DNA of 55,392 bases from a virus (lineage: Duplodnaviria > Caudoviricetes), in the IMG/VR virus record IMGVR_UViG_3300035701_004790, positions 1 through 55,392 of that record; one strand, written 5' to 3'. Below the pieces are notes generated by a model. It had not been told where the DNA came from, ran no database searches, and worked only from the letters and a program-made list of their open reading frames with translations. This document shows, in pieces, positions 17,770 through 51,712 of the stretch. Position numbers and translations under genes: made by a program. How positions within the stretch are numbered: position 1 is the first letter of the stretch; every line of letters starts with the position of its first letter.

Positions 17770-17826
17770 AAAAAATAATGTTTTAGAATTAAGTTATATC
17801 AAAGATAACTATACAAAGGGAATACC

Positions 17827-17868
17827 AAATAAAAAAAATGCCATAATTGCAGTCAATTATGGCATTTT
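17827..17868 (-). terminator. Intrinsic terminator closing the large-RNA/tRNA transcript
   Basis: 15-bp perfect inverted repeat AAAATGCCATAATTG/CAATTATGGCATTTT with a 4-nt loop and a T-tract on the minus strand. Confidence 0.7.
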
Positions 17869-17905
17869 GTCTAATGTTTTGAATATTGAACGTTTTCAAC
17901 ATTCT

Positions 17906-17979
17906 TAGCACGGACAGACAGGATCACACTGCCATCTTCACCTGTTAGGGTGATATTCTAATAGTTAAACTACATCCGT
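17906..17979 (-). tRNA. Degenerate tRNA (Val-like) or tRNA-like element
   Basis: Minus-strand cloverleaf: acceptor ACGGATG/TGTCCGT, D stem GTTT/GAAT, anticodon stem TCACC/GGTGA, T stem GGCAG/CTGTC. The anticodon loop is only 6 nt (CTAACA), the D loop lacks GG, the T loop is TGTGATC and the 3' end is G-CTA. Confidence 0.7.
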
Positions 17980-17983
17980 ATAA

Positions 17984-18715
17984 ACGCCTGAGACTACAGC
18001 ATTTCAGTAGCACTTTCGGAGAATTATCCCTTAACGGGTTCTCTTCTTATCCACCCACCTTTCGGCAAGTACGCTACAATCGCAAGTTCCTAACGGGAAC
18101 CAATCGTTTCGTCAGAGTATTTTCAGTTACGTCCACCACTGCACTATCCCTTTCATGACAGTCTAAAGGAGATGCCTCCTAACAACGAGTCGTATCATCT
18201 GATTGACCTTGAGGGCCAACCATTACCGTATATTACAACGGTAGTTTGCGACTTACTACTCTAACGTCTCAGCACTTGATCTTTTATGTATCCATAATAG
18301 GGATATACTTTTGGTATATATCGGACTTGAGAAAGTTGTGGCTGAGACTCGGCTAACTACCTTTTGGATAGCCAATACCAAACAACTCTCTGTGACTTGC
18401 GATCACGATTCAATTTGTCTTCACGCTTTTGGCAACAAAAACAAAAGAAATTGGTAATAGCTCTATGTCCTTGCGAGACTTCAAACCATATCCTACGTTT
18501 TATGATCGTATCTTTCAATACTTATTCTGACTCCGTTAGTCAAACTTGACATCTAATCGCCTACAGTCGTAAGACCCTCGACAAATAAACCTCAAACACA
18601 ACGCTTGCTTGATTGTACCCTTCACCTTTCGGTGAGAGGTCGAAACTATGGTGTTCTTACCACAGCCCCTTTATAACCATTACTGGCTTTATCTCATGGA
18701 CTTCAAGCAGCCCAT
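17984..18715 (-). ncRNA. Large structured RNA, GOLLD-like (~730 nt; ends approximate)
   Basis: No credible ORF and GC well above the flanks. Many hairpins, with G-U pairs favouring the minus strand: CTCACC-GAAA-GGTGA, GTGAT-CGCAA-GTCAC, TTGGCC-CTCAA-GGTCAA, GTTCC-CGTTA-GGAAC, and long-range GTCTCAGC/GCTGAGAC. Two GTA(T/C)T...C(A/G)AAAGG modules and the 3' GCTGTAGTCTCAGGC resemble GOLLD as I recall it. Size, phage location and tRNA adjacency also fit GOLLD. Confidence 0.7.
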
Positions 18716-18725
18716 ATTTTAAATA

Positions 18726-18737
18726 TTTTCAAAGAAC
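18726..18737 (-). promoter_or_regulatory. boxA-like antitermination element
   Basis: GTTCTTTGAAAA on the minus strand between the promoter and the large RNA; matches rRNA-leader boxA. Confidence 0.6.
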
Positions 18738-18783
18738 AAATTCTTTTGTGGGGAAATATCCCCGTTGTTTCTAATTGAGAAGA

Positions 18784-18814
18784 CAAACTTACAATAATAT
18801 TACATGTAAGTCAA
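18784..18814 (-). promoter_or_regulatory. Bacteroidota-type housekeeping promoter for the large RNA
   Basis: TTG-N20-TAAGTTTG, an exact match to the TAnnTTTG -7 element with a correctly spaced -33 element. Confidence 0.7.
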
Positions 18815-18982
18815 GTCTTTACTAAAATATTTTTTTAAGTTACCTTATTTCTCAAATTAGGTAATGATAAATACGTAAAAAACTATAAAAGGTTATAATT
18901 TTTTTCTTTTTCTCATAAAATTTCTTGAACATACAACGAATATATCCAACATTCTCTACCTAAATAACTGTAAATCTGCATG

Positions 18983-43513: not shown

Positions 43514-46474
43514 TTAAATGGGTTTAGTTGGGACTATATTTCCATTATTTTTTGTTCTGGTCTTAACCTGACTATCTGTCGTTGCTCTATCAGGATATTG
43601 TGCACTTTCAGCCATTCTTGCCGTTGCATATACTCCAACAGGATAATAAGTTGAATTTGCATAATAATTGAAAGATTCCGCATTTTGTAATACATCTATA
43701 GCACCTTTCAATGATTGACCACCTATAATACGCATTGATATACTTATATCTGCAATCATGAATTGCATACCCATTCCTTCTGGATTCATATCCCAAGGAG
43801 AGTCTGCATAATCAAAATCAATACTATCAATTATAACTTTAGTATGGAAAAAATCTCCTAATCTCAATATACAAACTGGCGGTCTACCAAATACAGAATT
43901 TCTAGCAGCAGGAATACCATCTTGCGTTGTTTGTTCTAACACTGTTGAATTACCTTGTCTTGTACATTGTTGTAAAAATGTGAGTCTTCTATGAAAATCT
44001 TCTGGTGTTTGAGAATGAAATACTGGAGATAATGTTCTTCTTTCAGCAGACTCAAAACCAGTATTCTCTTTATCTTTAATACTTCTCAAAACAAATAAAC
44101 TTTCTTTTTGTTCAAAATTTTCAGCAGCACTAATCAATTTTTTATTATTATCTATTTGATCTAATATATCTGATCTTCTTTTCTTTTCTTCTGTAGTTAA
44201 AGTAATTGGATCAACTACATTACTTGGGCTTCTTTCGTAGTGTATATACGAATTTCTTTCAGGTTTAATATCTCTTTCATTCATGAATTGAGATGTCGCA
44301 CCTTTCTCCGATCCATTAACCGAACTAAGAGGATTAGACGTAACATCTATTCCAACTTGACTTAATGTCTTACCATGTAAATCATAAAATAATGTATTAA
44401 TATACGACAATAAAGATTGATTACGTCTATTTGAAAGATCGTAGTTATAAACGTATTCTTTAGTTTTGTCTTTATATAATTTACTTGCAGAACCGAATAC
44501 TGTTAATTTTATTAATTTATAATTTTCAGGATTTACTTCATTCAATATGTTTGCAACAAAATTTGTTGAGTCAGCTATAAACCCTGAATTCAAACCAAAA
44601 TCATGTAATCCATCAATACCTTGAACATCTCCTGATTTCATCTCATATCCAGCAGCAATATCTCCATCAACACTATCACCATCATTATGAAAATAAAATT
44701 TACAATAATCACCCGACTTTACTTCTTGTGTTTCTTTTTTTACCGTTGGTTGCAATTCATTTAATTGATCTTCTAACATTATGTTCTCAGCTTTTTTTGC
44801 TGTAATATCAATATTAGCCAAATCAGAATCTTTCAAATTACCACCAAAAGCAAAAAACTTTGCTATTGAAGCATGATCCTGTCCTTTAATTTGTGGTGGA
44901 TAATCAATAATTAATTTAAAACTTAATCTTGCAATACGTTCCGAATTACTATAAGTATATATTGGTTCACCTCTACCTATAATTACTGTAGAGTCATATT
45001 TTGCTAATGAACTTTCACTAAATTGAATTCCATAAGGTGGAAACCACATGACTCTACCTAAATTTGCACCAACTTCTGATTTAGGTACTTTAGTACCACT
45101 AATATCTCCAAGATGTCCAGAACTATTTAACGCATAAGCTAAATTTTCAATACTGAACATCATGTTTTTATTATTTATGCTGTTGGTATTTTTATTTAAT
45201 AATGGATGCATTCTAGGTATTACATATCTACTAATCACAGATTCTGACGGAGCATCATATTGATAATTTCCTTTAAATCGTATTGCTTTTTTATAATTAT
45301 TATATGGATCAAGAATACTATGTTGTCTCTCTGTTCTAACGACCCCATCATTATCTCTTGTTAACGGTGAACCATTATATATTGGTTGACCATTTTTATC
45401 ATACCACTTAGTTTTTGTTTGATCTATTGATGAATTAGAACCTCTCGCAGTTAATAATGCTCTTGTATATGCTAACATACCAGTTCTGGTTCCAAACTTA
45501 CTAGCCATACTTGATAAACCATCTCTACCCCAAATAATTTGATTCTCTGGATTTGAATTTCCAAAACCATAAGCATCATTCACAAATTCAAAATCAAGTG
45601 CCTTATTTTCATTAGGTAAATTTTGTGCAGAAGCATTAGATTCTTTTAATGATTTACCAAAACTATCAATCTTCGCCCCATAAGCCAAATTATCTTGACC
45701 TTCTATTGATTTTAAGTCTTTAATTTTTAATGCAGTAAGGTTACCAAGAATATCACGATTAGCTAAATCTGAATCTGGAAACTCTGGTGTATATATCGTA
45801 GGAAAAAATAATCTATTATACCATTCCGGGCCAGCAGGTATTATCGAATAACCCTGATCATTTGTCGTTCCTATAAACGAAGAATTACTTGGTTTATATG
45901 TGTTTCTATTTATTGAATCGTATACGAAATGCAATACTCCCTTTCCTGTATTTCTAATCAACGTGTTATTATCTGTAATATTATTTAATGATCCTTCTGA
46001 ATATAAATTAGTTGGCACAGGTGGTGTTAGTGAATATGGGATCGTAATTCTTTGTGTACCTGAAATTCTATCAACGATATTTTGAACAGTTGTATTAGTT
46101 TCATCACGAGTAATTCTATAATCAACTCTTTTAGTAAATAACTTTGTATTTGGATTACCATCAAAAAGATTATTGAAGTTCAATGAAGGTAATCCAGCCG
46201 TTAATGCATTTTGTGTTACACGTTGAGCAAATTGTTTACCTAATTGCTGAATGCCAATTTGAGCTATTGGTGTGTTTGGCCCTACAAGTCTACCCAGTAC
46301 TGTATTTGTAAGATCAAATGATTTTGTAGGATTTATGATTTTTGAAATCGAATTAATAGCTTGAATAACTTTAGGGTTATTAATCTCATACGGGTTGTTA
46401 GGCGTATATAAATTTCTAGACTCTAAGTTTTCTCTTAACTGTTGAAATTGAACGTTATCTTTGATTCCAGCCAT
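43514..46474 (-). CDS. Baseplate / tail-tube-initiator-like protein with an inserted OmpA-like domain, 986 aa
   Basis: Tube-fold halves IGRGEPIYTYSNSER..LSF and PPVCILRLGDF...IIDS...PWD flank an F.ND...GSAS...YNYDLSNRR segment. Located between the tape measure and the LysM-like gene. Confidence 0.6.
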   Translation of the reverse strand: MAGIKDNVQFQQLRENLESRNLYTPNNPYEINNPKVIQAINSISKIINPTKSFDLTNTVLGRLVGPNTPIAQIGIQQLGKQFAQRVTQNALTAGLPSLNFNNLFDGNPNTKLFTKRVDYRITRDETNTTVQNIVDRISGTQRITIPYSLTPPVPTNLYSEGSLNNITDNNTLIRNTGKGVLHFVYDSINRNTYKPSNSSFIGTTNDQGYSIIPAGPEWYNRLFFPTIYTPEFPDSDLANRDILGNLTALKIKDLKSIEGQDNLAYGAKIDSFGKSLKESNASAQNLPNENKALDFEFVNDAYGFGNSNPENQIIWGRDGLSSMASKFGTRTGMLAYTRALLTARGSNSSIDQTKTKWYDKNGQPIYNGSPLTRDNDGVVRTERQHSILDPYNNYKKAIRFKGNYQYDAPSESVISRYVIPRMHPLLNKNTNSINNKNMMFSIENLAYALNSSGHLGDISGTKVPKSEVGANLGRVMWFPPYGIQFSESSLAKYDSTVIIGRGEPIYTYSNSERIARLSFKLIIDYPPQIKGQDHASIAKFFAFGGNLKDSDLANIDITAKKAENIMLEDQLNELQPTVKKETQEVKSGDYCKFYFHNDGDSVDGDIAAGYEMKSGDVQGIDGLHDFGLNSGFIADSTNFVANILNEVNPENYKLIKLTVFGSASKLYKDKTKEYVYNYDLSNRRNQSLLSYINTLFYDLHGKTLSQVGIDVTSNPLSSVNGSEKGATSQFMNERDIKPERNSYIHYERSPSNVVDPITLTTEEKKRRSDILDQIDNNKKLISAAENFEQKESLFVLRSIKDKENTGFESAERRTLSPVFHSQTPEDFHRRLTFLQQCTRQGNSTVLEQTTQDGIPAARNSVFGRPPVCILRLGDFFHTKVIIDSIDFDYADSPWDMNPEGMGMQFMIADISISMRIIGGQSLKGAIDVLQNAESFNYYANSTYYPVGVYATARMAESAQYPDRATTDSQVKTRTKNNGNIVPTKPI

Positions 46475-46493
46475 TAGGTTGTATTCTTTGGAT

Positions 46494-46501
46494 ATAAATA
46501 C
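46494..46501 (-). promoter_or_regulatory. GTATTTAT motif, candidate late promoter for the baseplate plus glycosylation operon
   Basis: 19 nt upstream of ATG 46474; recurrent motif. Confidence 0.55.
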
Positions 46502-46524
46502 TTCATAATATTTTCTTGATAATA

Positions 46525-46555
46525 TTTGGTTTTACGATTTTTTGTATTATTATTG
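46525..46555 (+). promoter_or_regulatory. Bacteroidota-type promoter for an antisense-oriented non-coding element
   Basis: TTTG-N19-TATTATTG (one mismatch to TAnnTTTG), ending just before the first stem. Confidence 0.5.
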
Positions 46556-46558
46556 CGC

Positions 46559-46823
46559 AATCTAATGGTTGGGTAAACACCAAATAGCGTTAGATTTAAA
46601 GAACTTAAGACAGTTACTATTTGGGTAACGAAAGCTGTCAACCCACTCCTAAGTCATAAAGGGTCGTAAAAGGAATTAGGATATTCCTGATGTACTATGA
46701 TTGGTTAATGGATACCTAATATCACATTAATCCACAGATACCTCAAGTTAGTTATCATGTGATGGACTCTTCTTTATACTGCAAATATGTAGTGTTTAGG
46801 GGAGTCCTCCTATGCACATTTCC
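46559..46823 (+). ncRNA. Unassigned structured RNA candidate (~265 nt)
   Basis: ORF-free, GC-elevated island with consecutive stems: 46559-67/46588-96, 46609-13/46635-39, 46647-52/46676-81, 46702-14/46720-34, and 46764-73/46798-807 with inner 46776-83/46788-95. Five G-U pairs work only on the plus strand. Confidence 0.6.
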
Positions 46824-46991
46824 TAAGTTAATTTTTCATTAAAATTGTATTATTCCAAATAAGTAAACTATTATTATTATATTTATTTAATAATGTTAAC
46901 AAGTTGATTGTGTGTTGTATAGCATTCTTAATTAAGAATATTATAACTAATTAAGAATATAACGAGTATTATTGTAACTCATTTAAATATA

Positions 46992-49541
46992 TTACAATAC
47001 ACCTGCAGAAGATGATCCTTGTTGATGTCTAACTGTTTGAATAACAGCTTCTTTACCAATATCAAGCAATTTAACTAATCTTTCACGATTTATCTCTAAA
47101 GTGATGTCAGACTTAATTGCGACAGACTTATCAGCAAATACCACTTGAAGAGGTTTTGATAATAATTGTTTTAATTCACCAAAAATACTATTTGAATCTA
47201 ATTTAGCATTAGCAATATTTGTAATTGCTTTTTCAACTCTTTCAAATTGATCAGCACTACCATTCATGACAACACCAATGTTTTTGAATGCTTCACCTAC
47301 TTTCATTAAATTATCACCTTGAGATGCTATGGCTAAGATCATGCCTAAAGCACCTGCACCACCGATAGCACCTATAATTCCACCACCAGCTAATGCAAAT
47401 GTTGCAGCACCTATTGCAGCAATACCGCCAGCAATACCTAATAACTCTGTACCATCAGCATTTTGTGTTAATTCAGATAATCCTTTTGCCATGTAACCAA
47501 TACCAGCAGCAGCGATACCAATACCAGCACCTATTGCTAATGCAGCGACACCAATAACTAATAATCCTTCTGATGCTGCAGCACCTGCAATACCTATTGC
47601 AATTAATCCCACAGCAAGAGTTCCAATCATTATAACTCCAAGAGTTTTTAATGCGCTATTAATTCCATCAATTTGTTTTACGTCAAGACCCTTGAATGCT
47701 TCTGCTAATTTTGAAATTCCTAATGCAGCTAATCCAACACCAGCACCAATACCAACTGCAGCCACACCAACTGCAGCAATAGATTTTGCTGCACCAGCAC
47801 TGGCAATTCCCTTACCTGCACCACCACCAATACCACCTGCAGTAGGGGCAGTTGTTGGTGCTGTTTTACCTGCACCACCAAACAATCCACCAATTCCCGG
47901 AATTTTTTGAGCTAATTTAAATGCTTTAAATAGTGCAAATCCACCAATGGCTAATCCTGCAGTCCATTTCATACCTTTATCACCAATCAAACTTTTTATC
48001 CAATCTTTAAGATCATTTATACCACCTAAAGCCCAGTTGATTGCATCCAGTACTGGAAGTAATGCTGATTTCATTTCAAGCATTGTATTTTTCATAACAT
48101 CCTCGAATGTTTGTGACTCAACGGCTCTTTTTTCTAAAGTAATACTTTCTTGTTTAAGTAATTCAATATCACTTGTAGATAATTTAGAAATATCTTTTTG
48201 AGCACCATTAACCATTGCAAAAAATTTACCTGTCTTTGTATCAAATTTTGTAATACCTTCAATATATTCTTTTTCGTCTTTAGTTAAATTAAGACCGAGA
48301 GTTGCTTGTTTCTTTTTTTGTTCTTGTGCAACCCTACGTGCTGATTCAGCCAAATTTTCATAGGATACGCCTAGAGCATCTGCAGCAAGTCTTAATCTAT
48401 CCTGATCTTGAGCAGTTATATCAAATTCAAAACCATCTTCTGTTTTTTTTAAAGAAGCCATACCTTTAGTCATTTGGGCTATCTTTTTAGTATATTCTGC
48501 AGGATCATTTCTTGATAGAAATAGTAATTCAAATGGATCAGTTTTTGAAAATTCACCTCCAAGAACATTAAGTTGTGCAGCCATTTCAATAGCACCTTCA
48601 AGGCTCTTTGCCATCTTAGCACTATTGATAGAATCGTTTATGTCAAGTTTAAACTTTTCAGAATATTCAGACATTTTAGCCATACCTTTAATACCATCCT
48701 TAAATGAAAATGTATTAAGTCGTTTAAAATTTTGACTCAAATTTTTTAATACTTTAGTTGCATTGATTCCCATACGTTCAGATGTATCAACAACACCTTG
48801 AACAAAACCTTCTGTTGTTTTAACACTAACACCTAGTAAATCAAATTGACCCACAAGTTTACCAGCACTGTCAACACCAAGAGCAGTTCCTTTTGCTATA
48901 TTTGTTACCAGTTCGAATTCTTTTTGTGTAAGTGCAACAGTTTTTTGTGTTTCATTAGAATACTCCGTTTGCATTTTAGCTAAATCAGCAATGGAAACAC
49001 CTAATCTTTGAGCATATGTTGAAGCCCCTTTAATATTTGTGCTCATTTCATCAGCTTTACTACCTGAAAGTCCTAACGATAAGTTAAGAGTCTTAACGGC
49101 TTTATCTGATTCCATTAAATATGTCCATACAGCACCAAATCCAAAATTTTTGTTGGCAAATTGTGCTACAGATGTTTTAATATTATTAATTACCTTCTGT
49201 TGATTAGTAAGTGTTGTAAGTTGTTTATTTAATTCTCTATCTAGAAGTCTGGCTTGAATTATTTGTTGTTTGATTTGATTTTTTATTACTGCTAACTCTT
49301 TCTTACTTCTATGTGATTTATTTGATGCTTCTTTATTTAATTTTTGTTCTAAGTCAAATAACTGTTTAGCACTAATAAGTTTCTGTAATTCAATATCTGA
49401 GGTCGTTTTACTTAATGAACTCTCATAACCCATAGCATCATTAATCTCTTTTAGTATAATAAGCTTTTCTTTTAAAGCTTTAAGAGAAATGTCAGTATTT
49501 CTATCGTTAATTTTATTGTTTGTTGTGGGTTTTTTAGCCAT
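46992..49541 (-). CDS. Tape measure protein, 849 aa
   Basis: Helical Lys/Glu/Ala-rich N-terminal region and Gly/Ala hydrophobic stretches; directly downstream of the frameshifting chaperone. Confidence 0.8.
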   Translation of the reverse strand: MAKKPTTNNKINDRNTDISLKALKEKLIILKEINDAMGYESSLSKTTSDIELQKLISAKQLFDLEQKLNKEASNKSHRSKKELAVIKNQIKQQIIQARLLDRELNKQLTTLTNQQKVINNIKTSVAQFANKNFGFGAVWTYLMESDKAVKTLNLSLGLSGSKADEMSTNIKGASTYAQRLGVSIADLAKMQTEYSNETQKTVALTQKEFELVTNIAKGTALGVDSAGKLVGQFDLLGVSVKTTEGFVQGVVDTSERMGINATKVLKNLSQNFKRLNTFSFKDGIKGMAKMSEYSEKFKLDINDSINSAKMAKSLEGAIEMAAQLNVLGGEFSKTDPFELLFLSRNDPAEYTKKIAQMTKGMASLKKTEDGFEFDITAQDQDRLRLAADALGVSYENLAESARRVAQEQKKKQATLGLNLTKDEKEYIEGITKFDTKTGKFFAMVNGAQKDISKLSTSDIELLKQESITLEKRAVESQTFEDVMKNTMLEMKSALLPVLDAINWALGGINDLKDWIKSLIGDKGMKWTAGLAIGGFALFKAFKLAQKIPGIGGLFGGAGKTAPTTAPTAGGIGGGAGKGIASAGAAKSIAAVGVAAVGIGAGVGLAALGISKLAEAFKGLDVKQIDGINSALKTLGVIMIGTLAVGLIAIGIAGAAASEGLLVIGVAALAIGAGIGIAAAGIGYMAKGLSELTQNADGTELLGIAGGIAAIGAATFALAGGGIIGAIGGAGALGMILAIASQGDNLMKVGEAFKNIGVVMNGSADQFERVEKAITNIANAKLDSNSIFGELKQLLSKPLQVVFADKSVAIKSDITLEINRERLVKLLDIGKEAVIQTVRHQQGSSSAGVL

Positions 49542-49805: not shown

Positions 49806-50822
49806 CTAAATGAAGGGGAAAAAAAAATCTATGCCCACTGAAATTTTGGCCTTAAATTTATATCCATCATTGGCAGTAAATTCATAATTCATATCAACGT
49901 CAGGAGTAACTTCGGCAATTTTCTGTTTTAATAGTGAAGTATCTTTAGCTGGTAATGCATCAATAAATTGGACGATATAGTCTTTATTACGATTTCCACC
50001 AACTTCAACAACTTCTGCTTTTAATTTTAATGACCCAAATTCACTATATGATGTAGCATATGCTTCTTGTTTTGCTTCTGCAGTTTTAAGAACATGATTG
50101 ATTTCCTTGTAATTAAGTATTTTAAATTTAACAAAGAGTTTTCTAACTGGGAGTTGAAAAGAGAATTCACCTCTATCATCAGGAGTGATTTTAATATCTT
50201 TAGCTTTTAATTTGGTTAAATCCACCTTATCACTAAATGCATTACCTGTTCTTGGATCAGAAACTCTAACCTCATATTCTTCTCCATAAGAAGATGCTCT
50301 TAAGAAGAGTAATATAGCGTTTCTATCACCAACCAATAATTCATCGGTATTAATATTAGGGGTTTTAAGTTTATTTTTAATAAGAATGTCCAGTACTGTT
50401 CCATTCTCAATAAGAGAGGATGTTGAAAGAATATCTTCATCTTTAGAAGTCATATATTCAACAGTAACCTCTGATATTTTATGAGGGTAATATAATCCTT
50501 TTGAGGGAAAGGGTATAATTTCATAACCTACAGTGAGATTAGGGTCAACATTAGCTTGTTGAGCATATGCTGTTTTTTCGAAATCTTGTGAAGTTTGAAA
50601 ACCACTCATATTAACTGTTTGAGGGGTTACTTGTTTAGATTCTATATGTTCTGGTGGTATTGTTGTTGTTATAGGTGGTGTTCCTTCACGATTAATACCA
50701 CGATTTATAGTATTATCATTGTCATTACCATTTCTATTTTCGTAGAATCTATTCATTGCATCTTTCAATGCTTTTTGTTCTACTGGATCAATGATCTCTT
50801 TTTTTGGTTTTTGTGCTCCCAT
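49806..50822 (-). CDS. Tail/baseplate assembly chaperone (T4 gp26-like, lambda gpG-equivalent), 338 aa
   Basis: PSKGLYY, MTSKDEDIL, LLVGDRNAILLFLR..SYG..Y, ending IDFFFP on a slippery site upstream of the tape measure. Confidence 0.75.
   Translation of the reverse strand: MGAQKPKKEIIDPVEQKALKDAMNRFYENRNGNDNDNTINRGINREGTPPITTTIPPEHIESKQVTPQTVNMSGFQTSQDFEKTAYAQQANVDPNLTVGYEIIPFPSKGLYYPHKISEVTVEYMTSKDEDILSTSSLIENGTVLDILIKNKLKTPNINTDELLVGDRNAILLFLRASSYGEEYEVRVSDPRTGNAFSDKVDLTKLKAKDIKITPDDRGEFSFQLPVRKLFVKFKILNYKEINHVLKTAEAKQEAYATSYSEFGSLKLKAEVVEVGGNRNKDYIVQFIDALPAKDTSLLKQKIAEVTPDVDMNYEFTANDGYKFKAKISVGIDFFFPFI
49815..49827 (-). other. Programmed -1 ribosomal frameshift site
   Basis: GAT TTT TTT TTC CCC; a -1 slip gives ...DFFF-PLHLADRYKR-MITDEV... 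with no intervening stop. Confidence 0.75.
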
Positions 50823-50956
50823 AGTTATAATTTTTTATTAAGATTTATAAATAAATACAGTTACGAAAATAAATTGAAGAAAAATTCAAGATTTGTCATA
50901 GATTCTTGTATAAGGTAATAGGGAATATATTTTAATTTTAACATAGATGAAATTTA

Positions 50957-51712
50957 ATGAGTAAAATCAAAAGCAAGAAAAAAATTGAAATTAATGAAGT
51001 TTCAAAAAACGATATTAATGAAAGAGAAAAGGATAGAATTAGTAGTATTATTAGTGAGAAGGTAGTATTAAAAGCTAAAAATGATAGTCAAATACGACTT
51101 ATAAAGTCAATTAAAGAGAATCAAATAACCATTTGTAATGGTGTTGCTGGTTCAGGAAAGACAATATGTTCCATTTTTATGGCTTTAGCTTTATTAAAAG
51201 ATAGAGAAAATAGTTACCAAAAGATTTATTTAGTTAAATCAGTAACAACGCTAAAAGGTGAGGAAGTAGGATTTTTGAAGGGTGATTTAAGGGAAAAGAT
51301 TGATCCTTTCATGGAAAGTTTTAAAAATAATGCAAACAAATTATTTCATAATACGAATGTTGCTGCATTATTCGAGAGTAGCATTATAAAGTTTTTACCT
51401 CTTGCATATATCAGAGGAACAAACTTAGATAATTGCATTGTTATTTTAGATGAGATACAAAACGTATCAATTGATAATGCTAGAACATTATTAACTCGTA
51501 TTGGAGAAGATTGTAAGATTATTTGTTTGGGTGATGCTCATCAAATTGATTTAAAAAATAAGAAAGATAGTTCATTGGATGTTGTTTTAGAAATATTTAA
51601 AGACGTTCCAGATATGGGATGTGTTGAAATGGATATTAATGATGTTAATTGTAGAAATCCAATTATTAAAATAATTGAAGAAAAGTTTAAATCTTATAAA
51701 AGTAATGGTTGA
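50957..51712 (+). CDS. phoH: PhoH-family ATPase
   Basis: GVAGSGKT, GFLKGDLREKIDP, PLAYIRG, ILDEIQN, LLTRIG, GDAHQID, RNPII. Confidence 0.92.
   Translation: MSKIKSKKKIEINEVSKNDINEREKDRISSIISEKVVLKAKNDSQIRLIKSIKENQITICNGVAGSGKTICSIFMALALLKDRENSYQKIYLVKSVTTLKGEEVGFLKGDLREKIDPFMESFKNNANKLFHNTNVAALFESSIIKFLPLAYIRGTNLDNCIVILDEIQNVSIDNARTLLTRIGEDCKIICLGDAHQIDLKNKKDSSLDVVLEIFKDVPDMGCVEMDINDVNCRNPIIKIIEEKFKSYKSNG

Follow-up and report, generated by a model that had tools for sequence, protein, structure and literature searches.

A structured RNA family encoded opposite to tail genes in a small clade of jumbo phages

What does a long gap between phage tail genes hold, if not another gene? The question is raised by a 55,392-nucleotide (nt) stretch of DNA from a tailed virus (Caudoviricetes; positions 1 to 55,392 of IMG/VR record IMGVR_UViG_3300035701_004790; hereafter the window), in which a preliminary description made from the letters alone had pointed out a 517-nt gap and proposed that it encodes an unrecognised structured RNA, transcribed against the tail operon. 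The gap is exactly 517 nt long (46475-46991) and is flanked by two minus-strand open reading frames (ORFs; 43514-46474 and 46992-49541), which encode proteins of 986 and 849 amino acids (aa). The virus record has a CheckV completeness of 17%, and since related phages have genomes of 325-372 kb, the window belongs to a jumbo phage. Here we show that the element at 46552-46826 is non-coding, conserved and structured, and we consider it very probable that it represents a genuine family of plus-strand RNAs.

A conserved non-coding element with covarying helices

Querying with the 986-aa protein retrieved 11 syntenic loci, one of which, L003 (63% aa identity in its best segment), has a recognisable copy of the RNA that occupies the corresponding gap and is oriented alike. 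L013, which comes from a 362-kb phage, was added by motif scans, as were the metagenome contigs L149, L150 and L151, the first and last of which are close to each other. The family consists of the window and these five homologues, six sequences from four lineages, and in all six the RNA lies on the opposite strand between a gene of ~830-850 aa and a gene of ~985 aa, in phages of ~360 kb. The covariance models R1 and R2 match every member over the full length, with scores of 42-75 bits and 238-289 bits, respectively.

Selection on the element was gauged against its closest relative, L150. Over 46552-46826 the two are 96.9% identical, versus 80.0% in the 986-aa gene, 88.9% in part of the 849-aa gene and 68.1%, with 24 gapped columns, in the spacer after the RNA. 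This fall in identity at about 46830 marks the 3′ boundary, and the RNA body, both ends of which are predicted, probably extends from about 46559 to about 46826-46830. The few differences between the two copies include one that creates a G-U pair in helix X, one that creates a U-G pair in stem E and a compensated one in helix Y. Every frame of both strands contains at least three stops in all six members, and the gap has no plus-strand ORF of at least 30 aa. A short leader peptide following GGGGAG was considered and rejected, with the ATG absent in L013 and the conserved TTTCC lying in differing frames.

The five stems counted in the preliminary description are present, as hairpins A, B, C′, D and E, and contain G-U pairs that favour the plus strand (Table 1). 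Its 8-nt complement between CCAAATAG and CTATTTGG was likewise found where it had been placed and corresponds to helix X, which joins the loops of A and B; the gap as collected from the five homologues provides covariation in the stems and in this helix alike. Hairpin A, whose loop holds the invariant GGGTAAACACC, is followed by hairpin B, which is rebuilt as GTATGC/GCATAC or GTGTGC/GCACAC in relatives, and helix X takes the form CCTTTGG/CCAAAGG in L013. A second module repeats this arrangement. Hairpin C′, which displays TAGG in its loop, is replaced by CGGTAA/TTATCG or TGGTAA/TTATCA in relatives, with compensatory changes at three of six positions, and its loop pairs with that of hairpin D through helix Y. 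The latter occurs in four versions (TTAGG/CCTAA in the window, ATAGG/CCTAT in L150 and L003, GTAGG/CCTAC in L013 and GTAAG/CTTAC in L149 and L151), so that two of five positions covary and all 30 cells pair. In hairpin E, 88.3% of cells pair, and mid-stem pairs are found in some members only. A stem C as first drawn (TCCTAA/TTAGGA) was discarded: L149 and L151 change TAGG to TAAG with TCCTA unaltered and compensate in the loop of D.

Since the hand alignment had been built by looking for pairs, these were also counted on A7, an Infernal-fitted alignment whose model holds helices A, B, D and E only. On A7, 95.6% of 274 cells pair, compared with 77.6 +/- 1.7% in shuffled alignments (0/500 as high), and both-side changes occur in 24 of 49 pairs, compared with 12.9 +/- 2.0 (again 0/500); sliding the partners by one to three columns left only 3-8 such pairs. 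Helix X is part of this signal though outside the model, as 97.7% of its cells pair and three of its eight pairs change on both sides (four of eight in the hand alignment), and RNAalifold recovers A, B, D and E from A7 on its own. The hand alignment gives 24 compensatory positions out of 50, with 289 of 296 cells paired, and accommodates C′ and helix Y, which are misaligned in A7. For three sequences, MAFFT followed by RNAalifold yielded a poor structure, and because the MAFFT alignments (A1-A4) misalign the 3′ half, the covariance-model-fitted and hand alignments were used instead. The covariation is unusually clear for so few members.

Other pairings are less well defined. The possible pseudoknot K is invariant on both sides, which makes covariation uninformative, and RNAalifold pairs its ACCC with the GGGT of AAGGGT rather than with TGGGT at 46570-74. 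Two copies of TTGGGTAA (46569-76 and 46621-28) and the ACCCA with which each was thought able to pair are present as described, but the switch proposed from them finds no support in the relatives, in which the second copy is not conserved and reads GGGGAA, GGGGGAA or GGGGAG. RNAalifold also pairs the 3′ tail with AGGAAAT of the C′ loop, a pairing that shows no covariation and has an A-C mismatch in L149 and L151.

Table 1 Features of the RNA and its locus (strands and positions refer to the window)
Feature	Position	Strand	Sequence or remark
Promoter-like motif	46525-46555	plus	TTTG 46525-28, 19-nt spacer, TATTATTG 46548-55
Structured RNA, conserved block	46552-46826	plus	full-length covariance-model matches in 6/6 members
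Hairpin A	46559-67 / 46588-96	plus	AATCTAATG / CGTTAGATT; both-side changes in 6/9 pairs
Possible pseudoknot K	46570-74 / 46641-45	plus	TGGGT / ACCCA; both sides invariant
Helix X (loop A-loop B)	46580-87 / 46617-24	plus	CCAAATAG / CTATTTGG
Hairpin B	46609-14 / 46634-39	plus	GACAGT / GCTGTC; 5/5 pairs change both sides, 100% of cells pair
Invariant motifs after K	46646-52; 46659-64	plus	CTCCTAA; AAGGGT
Hairpin C′	46671-76 / 46683-88	plus	AGGAAT / ATTCCT; hand alignment only
Helix Y (loop C′-loop D)	46676-80 / 46715-19	plus	TTAGG / CCTAA; hand alignment only
Hairpin D	46705-10 / 46725-30	plus	TTAATG / CATTAA; 6/6 pairs change both sides
Invariant motif after hairpin D	46737-44	plus	GATACCTC
Hairpin E	46764-73 / 46798-807	plus	GGACTCTTCT / AGGGGAGTCC; base GGACT/AGTCC invariant
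Hairpin E, inner stem	46778-83 / 46788-93	plus	4/6 pairs change both sides
3′ tail	46808-46826	plus	ends in conserved TTTCCT
Spacer after RNA	46827-46991		A+T-rich; without ORF, without RNase H remnant
Tail-gene motif	46493-46501	minus	GTATTTATA; 20 nt upstream of the 986-aa gene ATG
ATAAATAC positions	17294, 18867, 21658, 27755, 29159, 30604, 34489, 46494, 49556, 50851	plus	
986-aa tail-module gene	43514-46474	minus	divergent from RNA
849-aa gene	46992-49541	minus	convergent with RNA; tape-measure-like by position only

Thermodynamic folding adds to this picture for the window copy. The plus strand of 46525-46823 folds at -83.4 kcal/mol (z -4.27), which none of 200 dinucleotide shuffles equalled, while the minus strand reaches a z of -1.26, with 23 of 200 shuffles as good; a repeat run on the trimmed RNA gave -4.48 and -1.68, respectively. 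The expectation of the preliminary description that folding would be better than in dinucleotide shuffles thus holds for the window, but a strong z is not shared by the other lineages (plus/minus: L003, -2.11/-1.05; L013, -1.39/-1.52; L149, -1.07/-0.52). It is largely particular to the window copy, and the case therefore rests on comparative evidence.

The RNA belongs to no family represented among the 4227 covariance models of Rfam 15. At gathering scores the window has no match at the RNA and only GOLLD elsewhere, and relaxing the threshold to E<=10 for 46300-47150 yielded MIR395 alone, at a noise level of 15.3 bits (E 4.7; gathering score 56). Eight related loci returned no Rfam match, three homologue loci searched at E<=1 returned two noise matches to eukaryotic families outside the RNA, and ARAGORN found no tRNA or tmRNA gene in the window. 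The earlier failure to recognise a known RNA was borne out by these searches. A keyword search of the literature found no description of the RNA; it was not searched by sequence, so that a publication is possible. We conclude that the RNA is a new family of phage non-coding RNA (ncRNA), to which no function is assigned. As a conserved structured element outside the known families it agrees with the preliminary description, whose further claims of transcription and of specific roles remain matters of interpretation.

The family is rare and confined to a small jumbo-phage clade. Among 85 further syntenic loci of the 986-aa gene, R2 detected the RNA only in L152, which is the contig of L013, and none in the other 84; among 15 related jumbo-phage records it detected two, with a single copy in each. 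None of four motif matches in GTDB genomes proved real with R2, and blastn of the gap against 50,697 GenBank phage records gave no match. A loose motif scan of IMG/VR was swamped by more than 120 chance matches, and tighter scans returned only known contigs or chance matches (13 of 16 matches in one scan and two of three in another, the latter two being GC-rich coding sequence with no covariance-model match); metagenome collections were scanned for exact motifs only, not with the covariance model.

Even L002, the relative closest to the window in protein sequence (72%), lacks the RNA. Its corresponding site has a different non-coding stretch of 494 nt (L002:3507-4000), which is richer in G+C (0.37), lies beside an HNH endonuclease gene and folds with z values of -1.93 and -2.62 on the two strands. 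This stretch matches neither Rfam nor the model of the new RNA, and could represent a further structured element or what is left of a mobile insertion.

Strand and promoter of the RNA

The helices themselves indicate which strand is folded. In the hand-aligned helices, 13 of 296 cells are G-U and one is C-A; on the opposite strand the former would be mismatches and the latter a pair, so the plus strand is favoured. This bears on the reading that the element is a DNA-level site or a chance pattern rather than an RNA. Transcription is only predicted here, and inverted repeats can fold in DNA too, but the G-U cells, the covarying loop-loop helices and the sharp conservation boundaries are hard to explain in double-stranded DNA, and a chance origin is incompatible with the shuffled and slid controls. 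We thus give the DNA-level or chance reading hardly any probability.

A host-type promoter had been described directly upstream of the stems. As a sigma-70 promoter it did not survive: a scan for TTGACA, a spacer of 16-18 nt and TATAAT with at least 9/12 matches detected no plus-strand site upstream of stem A, and the region as a whole has 7 sites versus 6.3 expected. What remains of the claim is a conserved motif of Bacteroidota type, TTTG-N19-TATTATTG, whose box ends 3 nt before stem A in the window. A TAnnATTG box is present 3-4 nt before stem A in all six members, and in five of them it is preceded by TTTG at a distance of 19-20 nt. The motif resembles the consensus of the Bacteroidota primary sigma factor (sigma-ABfr), quoted in the introduction of PMC7366714 as TTTG at about -33 and TAnnTTTG at about -7; the box matches this consensus at seven of eight positions. 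Shine-Dalgarno-like words (GGAG, GAGG, AGGA or GGGG within 20 nt before the start codon) precede only three of 39 predicted genes. Judging by its gene starts, the phage apparently makes no use of Shine-Dalgarno sequences, which suggests a Bacteroidota-like host and fits that consensus.

The tail genes seem to be served by another signal. A motif that reads GTATTTAT on the minus (gene) strand and ATAAATAC on the plus strand occurs 14 times in the window versus 8.0 expected, a count attained by 3 of 100 shuffles. Six minus-strand genes have it in the 100 nt before their start, four of them within 15-29 nt (29159, 46494, 49556 and 50851), and it is found near the start of the 986-aa gene in all seven gaps of relatives examined. 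The motif probably acts as a promoter for a phage-specific, possibly late, transcription system, serving the tail genes and not the RNA. Read from these motifs, the RNA and the tail genes would use different promoter types. On the gene strand of the L004, L005, L006 and L010 gaps, boxes resembling TAnnTTTG were seen by eye (e.g. TAACTTTG and TAAATTTG) ~150-250 nt upstream of the 986-aa homologue, which may have a host-type promoter with a long leader in these phages.

Possible modes of action

Taken as a whole statement, we lean with modest confidence towards a stand-alone ncRNA gene of ~270 nt, expressed early, the product of which acts in trans as a folded molecule. Host RNA polymerase would transcribe the RNA from the promoter of Bacteroidota type (TTTG-N19-TAnnATTG), whose end lies 3 nt from the first stem, and the transcript would fold into two modules of neighbouring hairpins with paired loops (A with B via helix X, C′ with D via helix Y), followed by the long hairpin E and the conserved tail. 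We propose that this rigid scaffold displays the invariant unpaired motifs GGGTAAACACC, ACCCACTCCTAA, AAGGGT, GATACCTC and GGGGAG, which could form the contact surface for a partner, be it a protein, another RNA or a small ligand. If the invariant motifs are such a surface, the RNA would act as a folded molecule and not via long antisense pairing. In L003, L149 and L151 it would double as the 5′ part of an RNase HI mRNA.

Several points weigh against this proposal. The comparison covers only four independent lineages, and both alignments lean towards structure, as A7 was fitted to four helices and the hand alignment sought pairs. Folding energy clearly beats shuffles in the window copy only, the two strands of L013 being alike and the value of L149 weak. 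The TAnnATTG box differs by one position from the published TAnnTTTG, L013 has no correctly spaced TTTG, and the promoter pattern is not enriched across the window (10 matches vs 6.4 expected), so that its weight comes from its conservation at a fixed place. A terminator scan found no clear intrinsic terminator after the RNA in the window. All 10 sequencing runs that contain the stretch appear to be recorded as DNA, and contigs from four of them gave short fragments only, with no informative variants. We infer the plus-strand transcript, its promoter, its 5′ and 3′ ends, its action in trans and its partner, and nothing identifies such a partner. Moreover, the gene found within about 26-45 nt of the RNA in three of six members would also fit a cis-acting leader.

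That gene encodes RNase HI (PF00075, E 5.6e-29; PHROG 'Rnase H') and follows the RNA on the same strand, at about 26-45 nt, in L003, L149 and L151, i.e. in two of four lineages. Among four complete related genomes, only that of L003 has an RNase HI gene, with its sole copy next to the RNA. None was found anywhere in the complete L013 genome, which keeps the RNA, and in the window, L150 and L013 no RNase HI gene lies downstream. A remnant of the gene was sought in their spacers, including that of the window, by tblastn with two RNase HI proteins, and none was found. Conversely, R2 applied to 80 phage RNase H loci detected the RNA only at L237, which is the contig of L003. Given one RNase H locus in 80 with the RNA, and an RNA that is kept without RNase HI, the element is not a general RNase H leader. 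RNase HI is an accessory gene, and the RNA stays under constraint without it. The same gap also accommodates other cargo on the strand opposite to the tail genes, namely the HNH endonuclease gene of L002 (L002:3024-3506, minus) and, in L004 and L011, an ORF of 155 aa with no family. An insertion hot spot inside the late operon seems to lie between the ~840-aa and ~985-aa tail genes.

These observations allow the RNA to be read as a cis-acting leader, a riboswitch-like or other regulator of accessory cargo whose fold would sense a signal and control whether the cargo is expressed, the copy in the window being a survivor after loss of the cargo. Such a leader would account for the RNase HI genes close behind the RNA, with no obvious second promoter or terminator in between, and would be in keeping with the other opposite-strand cargo in the gap; in addition, the complex fold and the alternative pairings of the 3′ tail and ACCC resemble an aptamer with a switching element. 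The conserved, covariation-supported fold expected of a riboswitch is present, but a constant 5′-leader position is not, as a same-strand gene lies downstream in only three of six members. The other three, representing two of four lineages, lack both gene and remnant, and yet the RNA remains constrained (96.9% identity vs 68.1% in the spacer). With no U-tract after stem E and no Shine-Dalgarno use (3/39 genes), neither of the usual expression platforms is visible: no terminator is listed after stem E, GGGGAG lies within this stem, and the alternative pairings lack covariation. Together with the single RNase H locus in 80, which is L003's own contig, this leads us to regard a cis-acting leader as unlikely.

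RNase HI also recalls the suggestion, made in the preliminary description, of a replication primer. In this scenario the RNA would form a hybrid with DNA that RNase HI processes into a primer, as for RNA II of ColE1. The presence of the gene after the RNA in two of four lineages, and its position beside the RNA as the sole copy in the one complete genome that has it, provide a weak hint in this direction. However, the turn of the GC skew, at ~50-51 kb, coincides with that of gene orientation and not with the RNA (a weak test), no repeats or origin-like features were seen in the gap, and the complete L013 genome retains the RNA without RNase HI. A role in replication is, in our judgement, very improbable.

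The position of the RNA suggests a further alternative, in which an early plus-strand transcript pairs over ~270 nt with late read-through from the 849-aa gene into the 986-aa gene, the duplex being cut or blocking read-through, and thereby uncouples or times the two tail genes. Consistent with this, the element lies on the opposite strand between two co-oriented late genes in all six members, the 986-aa gene has a promoter-like GTATTTAT of its own 20 nt before its ATG, as if expressed separately, and the box preceding the RNA differs from it in type. Antisense pairing would have no need of a conserved fold, however, and leaves the compensatory hairpins, the covarying loop-loop helices and the invariant single-stranded motifs unexplained, and none of the 84 other syntenic loci has the element. 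We consider an antisense regulator quite unlikely.

Compact pseudoknotted cores with invariant unpaired nucleotides are shared by several classes of ribozyme, and the new RNA has both features. It might therefore be self-cleaving, or otherwise catalytic, and process its own transcript. No ribozyme family of Rfam matches even at E<=10, though, and the order of the helix strands does not, by our reading, fit the nested double pseudoknot of ribozymes like that of hepatitis delta virus, which cleave at the 5′ end of P1. We accordingly rate catalysis as highly improbable, and retain the stand-alone, trans-acting RNA as the preferred interpretation.

The locus and its relation to known phage RNAs

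The flanking genes are placed in a tail/baseplate module mainly by their neighbour, as the gene at 49806-50822, next upstream of the 849-aa gene on the minus strand, matches T4_baseplate and a baseplate hub family, which makes such a module reasonable. The 986-aa gene matches no Pfam or PHROG family and is common in large phages, with 597 related stretches in IMG/VR. The 849-aa gene has no significant family in Pfam or PHROGs either, and its earlier designation as a tape-measure gene could not be confirmed. A perfect, A+T-only palindrome of 16 nt (ATTCTTAATTAAGAAT; 46924-46939) lies just past the stop of this gene, with a partial repeat 11 nt further on (46950-46959); it may act as a weak two-way terminator and is not kept in L150. 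About 4 kb from the RNA lies a divergent module boundary (~50822-50957), with minus-strand genes up to 50822 and plus-strand genes from 50957, at which the GC skew flips as well.

The window encodes a second large RNA. GOLLD (RF02032) matches at 17985-18390 on the minus strand with 158.3 bits (gathering score 150; E 1.5e-42), within a 1.2-kb non-coding gap (17770-18982) that has a copy of GTATTTAT at its upstream edge. This gap is far longer than the 416 positions of the Rfam model, so the full GOLLD RNA probably extends upstream. GOLLD was also detected in the related complete genomes G003 and G004, but not in G001 and G002.

GOLLD RNAs are in general much longer than ~270 nt. The new RNA resembles GOLLD, ROOL, OLE and HEARO in being phage-borne, large for an ncRNA, elaborately folded, without an assigned function and patchily distributed, whereas it differs from them in its length of ~270 nt, in its locus and in having no sequence or structure match to them in Rfam; its promoter-like motif is also unlike the GTATTTAT upstream of the GOLLD gap. 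GOLLD, ROOL and OLE are reported to form RNA-only multimers. By analogy, helices X and Y might form between molecules, with A and C′ of one copy pairing with B and D, respectively, of the next, to yield a small self-assembling particle of RNA lined by the invariant motifs. Such an RNA would be made early from a host-type promoter and encoded in the same phage as GOLLD. We view an assembly of this kind as rather improbable.

Loop-loop pairing has precedents within and between molecules. The aptamers of purine and lysine riboswitches are built on kissing hairpin loops, and the new RNA is similar in that a covarying loop-loop helix locks adjacent hairpins together, junction nucleotides are invariant and a same-strand gene follows in three of six members. 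Unlike these riboswitches, it has no match to any Rfam riboswitch model, no covariation-supported closing P1 and no visible terminator or ribosome-binding-site platform, and the downstream gene is absent in half of the members. The pRNA of phi29 is a phage-encoded structured RNA in which covarying loop-loop pairs act between molecules. Our RNA shares the phage origin, the structured nature and covarying loop-loop pairs, which may form within or between molecules, but differs in the type of phage, in its genomic position and in having no match to the Rfam model of pRNA. The ColE1 system, in which RNA II and RNase H generate a primer, is comparable in combining a structured RNA of a few hundred nt with RNase H; here, however, the GC skew gives no origin signal, RNase HI accompanies the RNA in two of four lineages, and there is no homology.

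Jumbo phages are emerging as carriers of large and elaborate RNAs, the functions of which are almost all unknown, and the window carries two of them. The novelty that we claim for the RNA described here concerns the family and its fold, not a mechanism. It is short enough for chemical probing, crystallography and cryo-electron microscopy, and its two loop-loop modules have already been put through mutation and rescue by natural variants. Nature also offers on/off comparisons, since the site has the RNA in some close relatives and lacks it in others, and since only some copies are followed by an RNase HI gene. The RNA could thus be a tractable entry into what such phage RNAs do.

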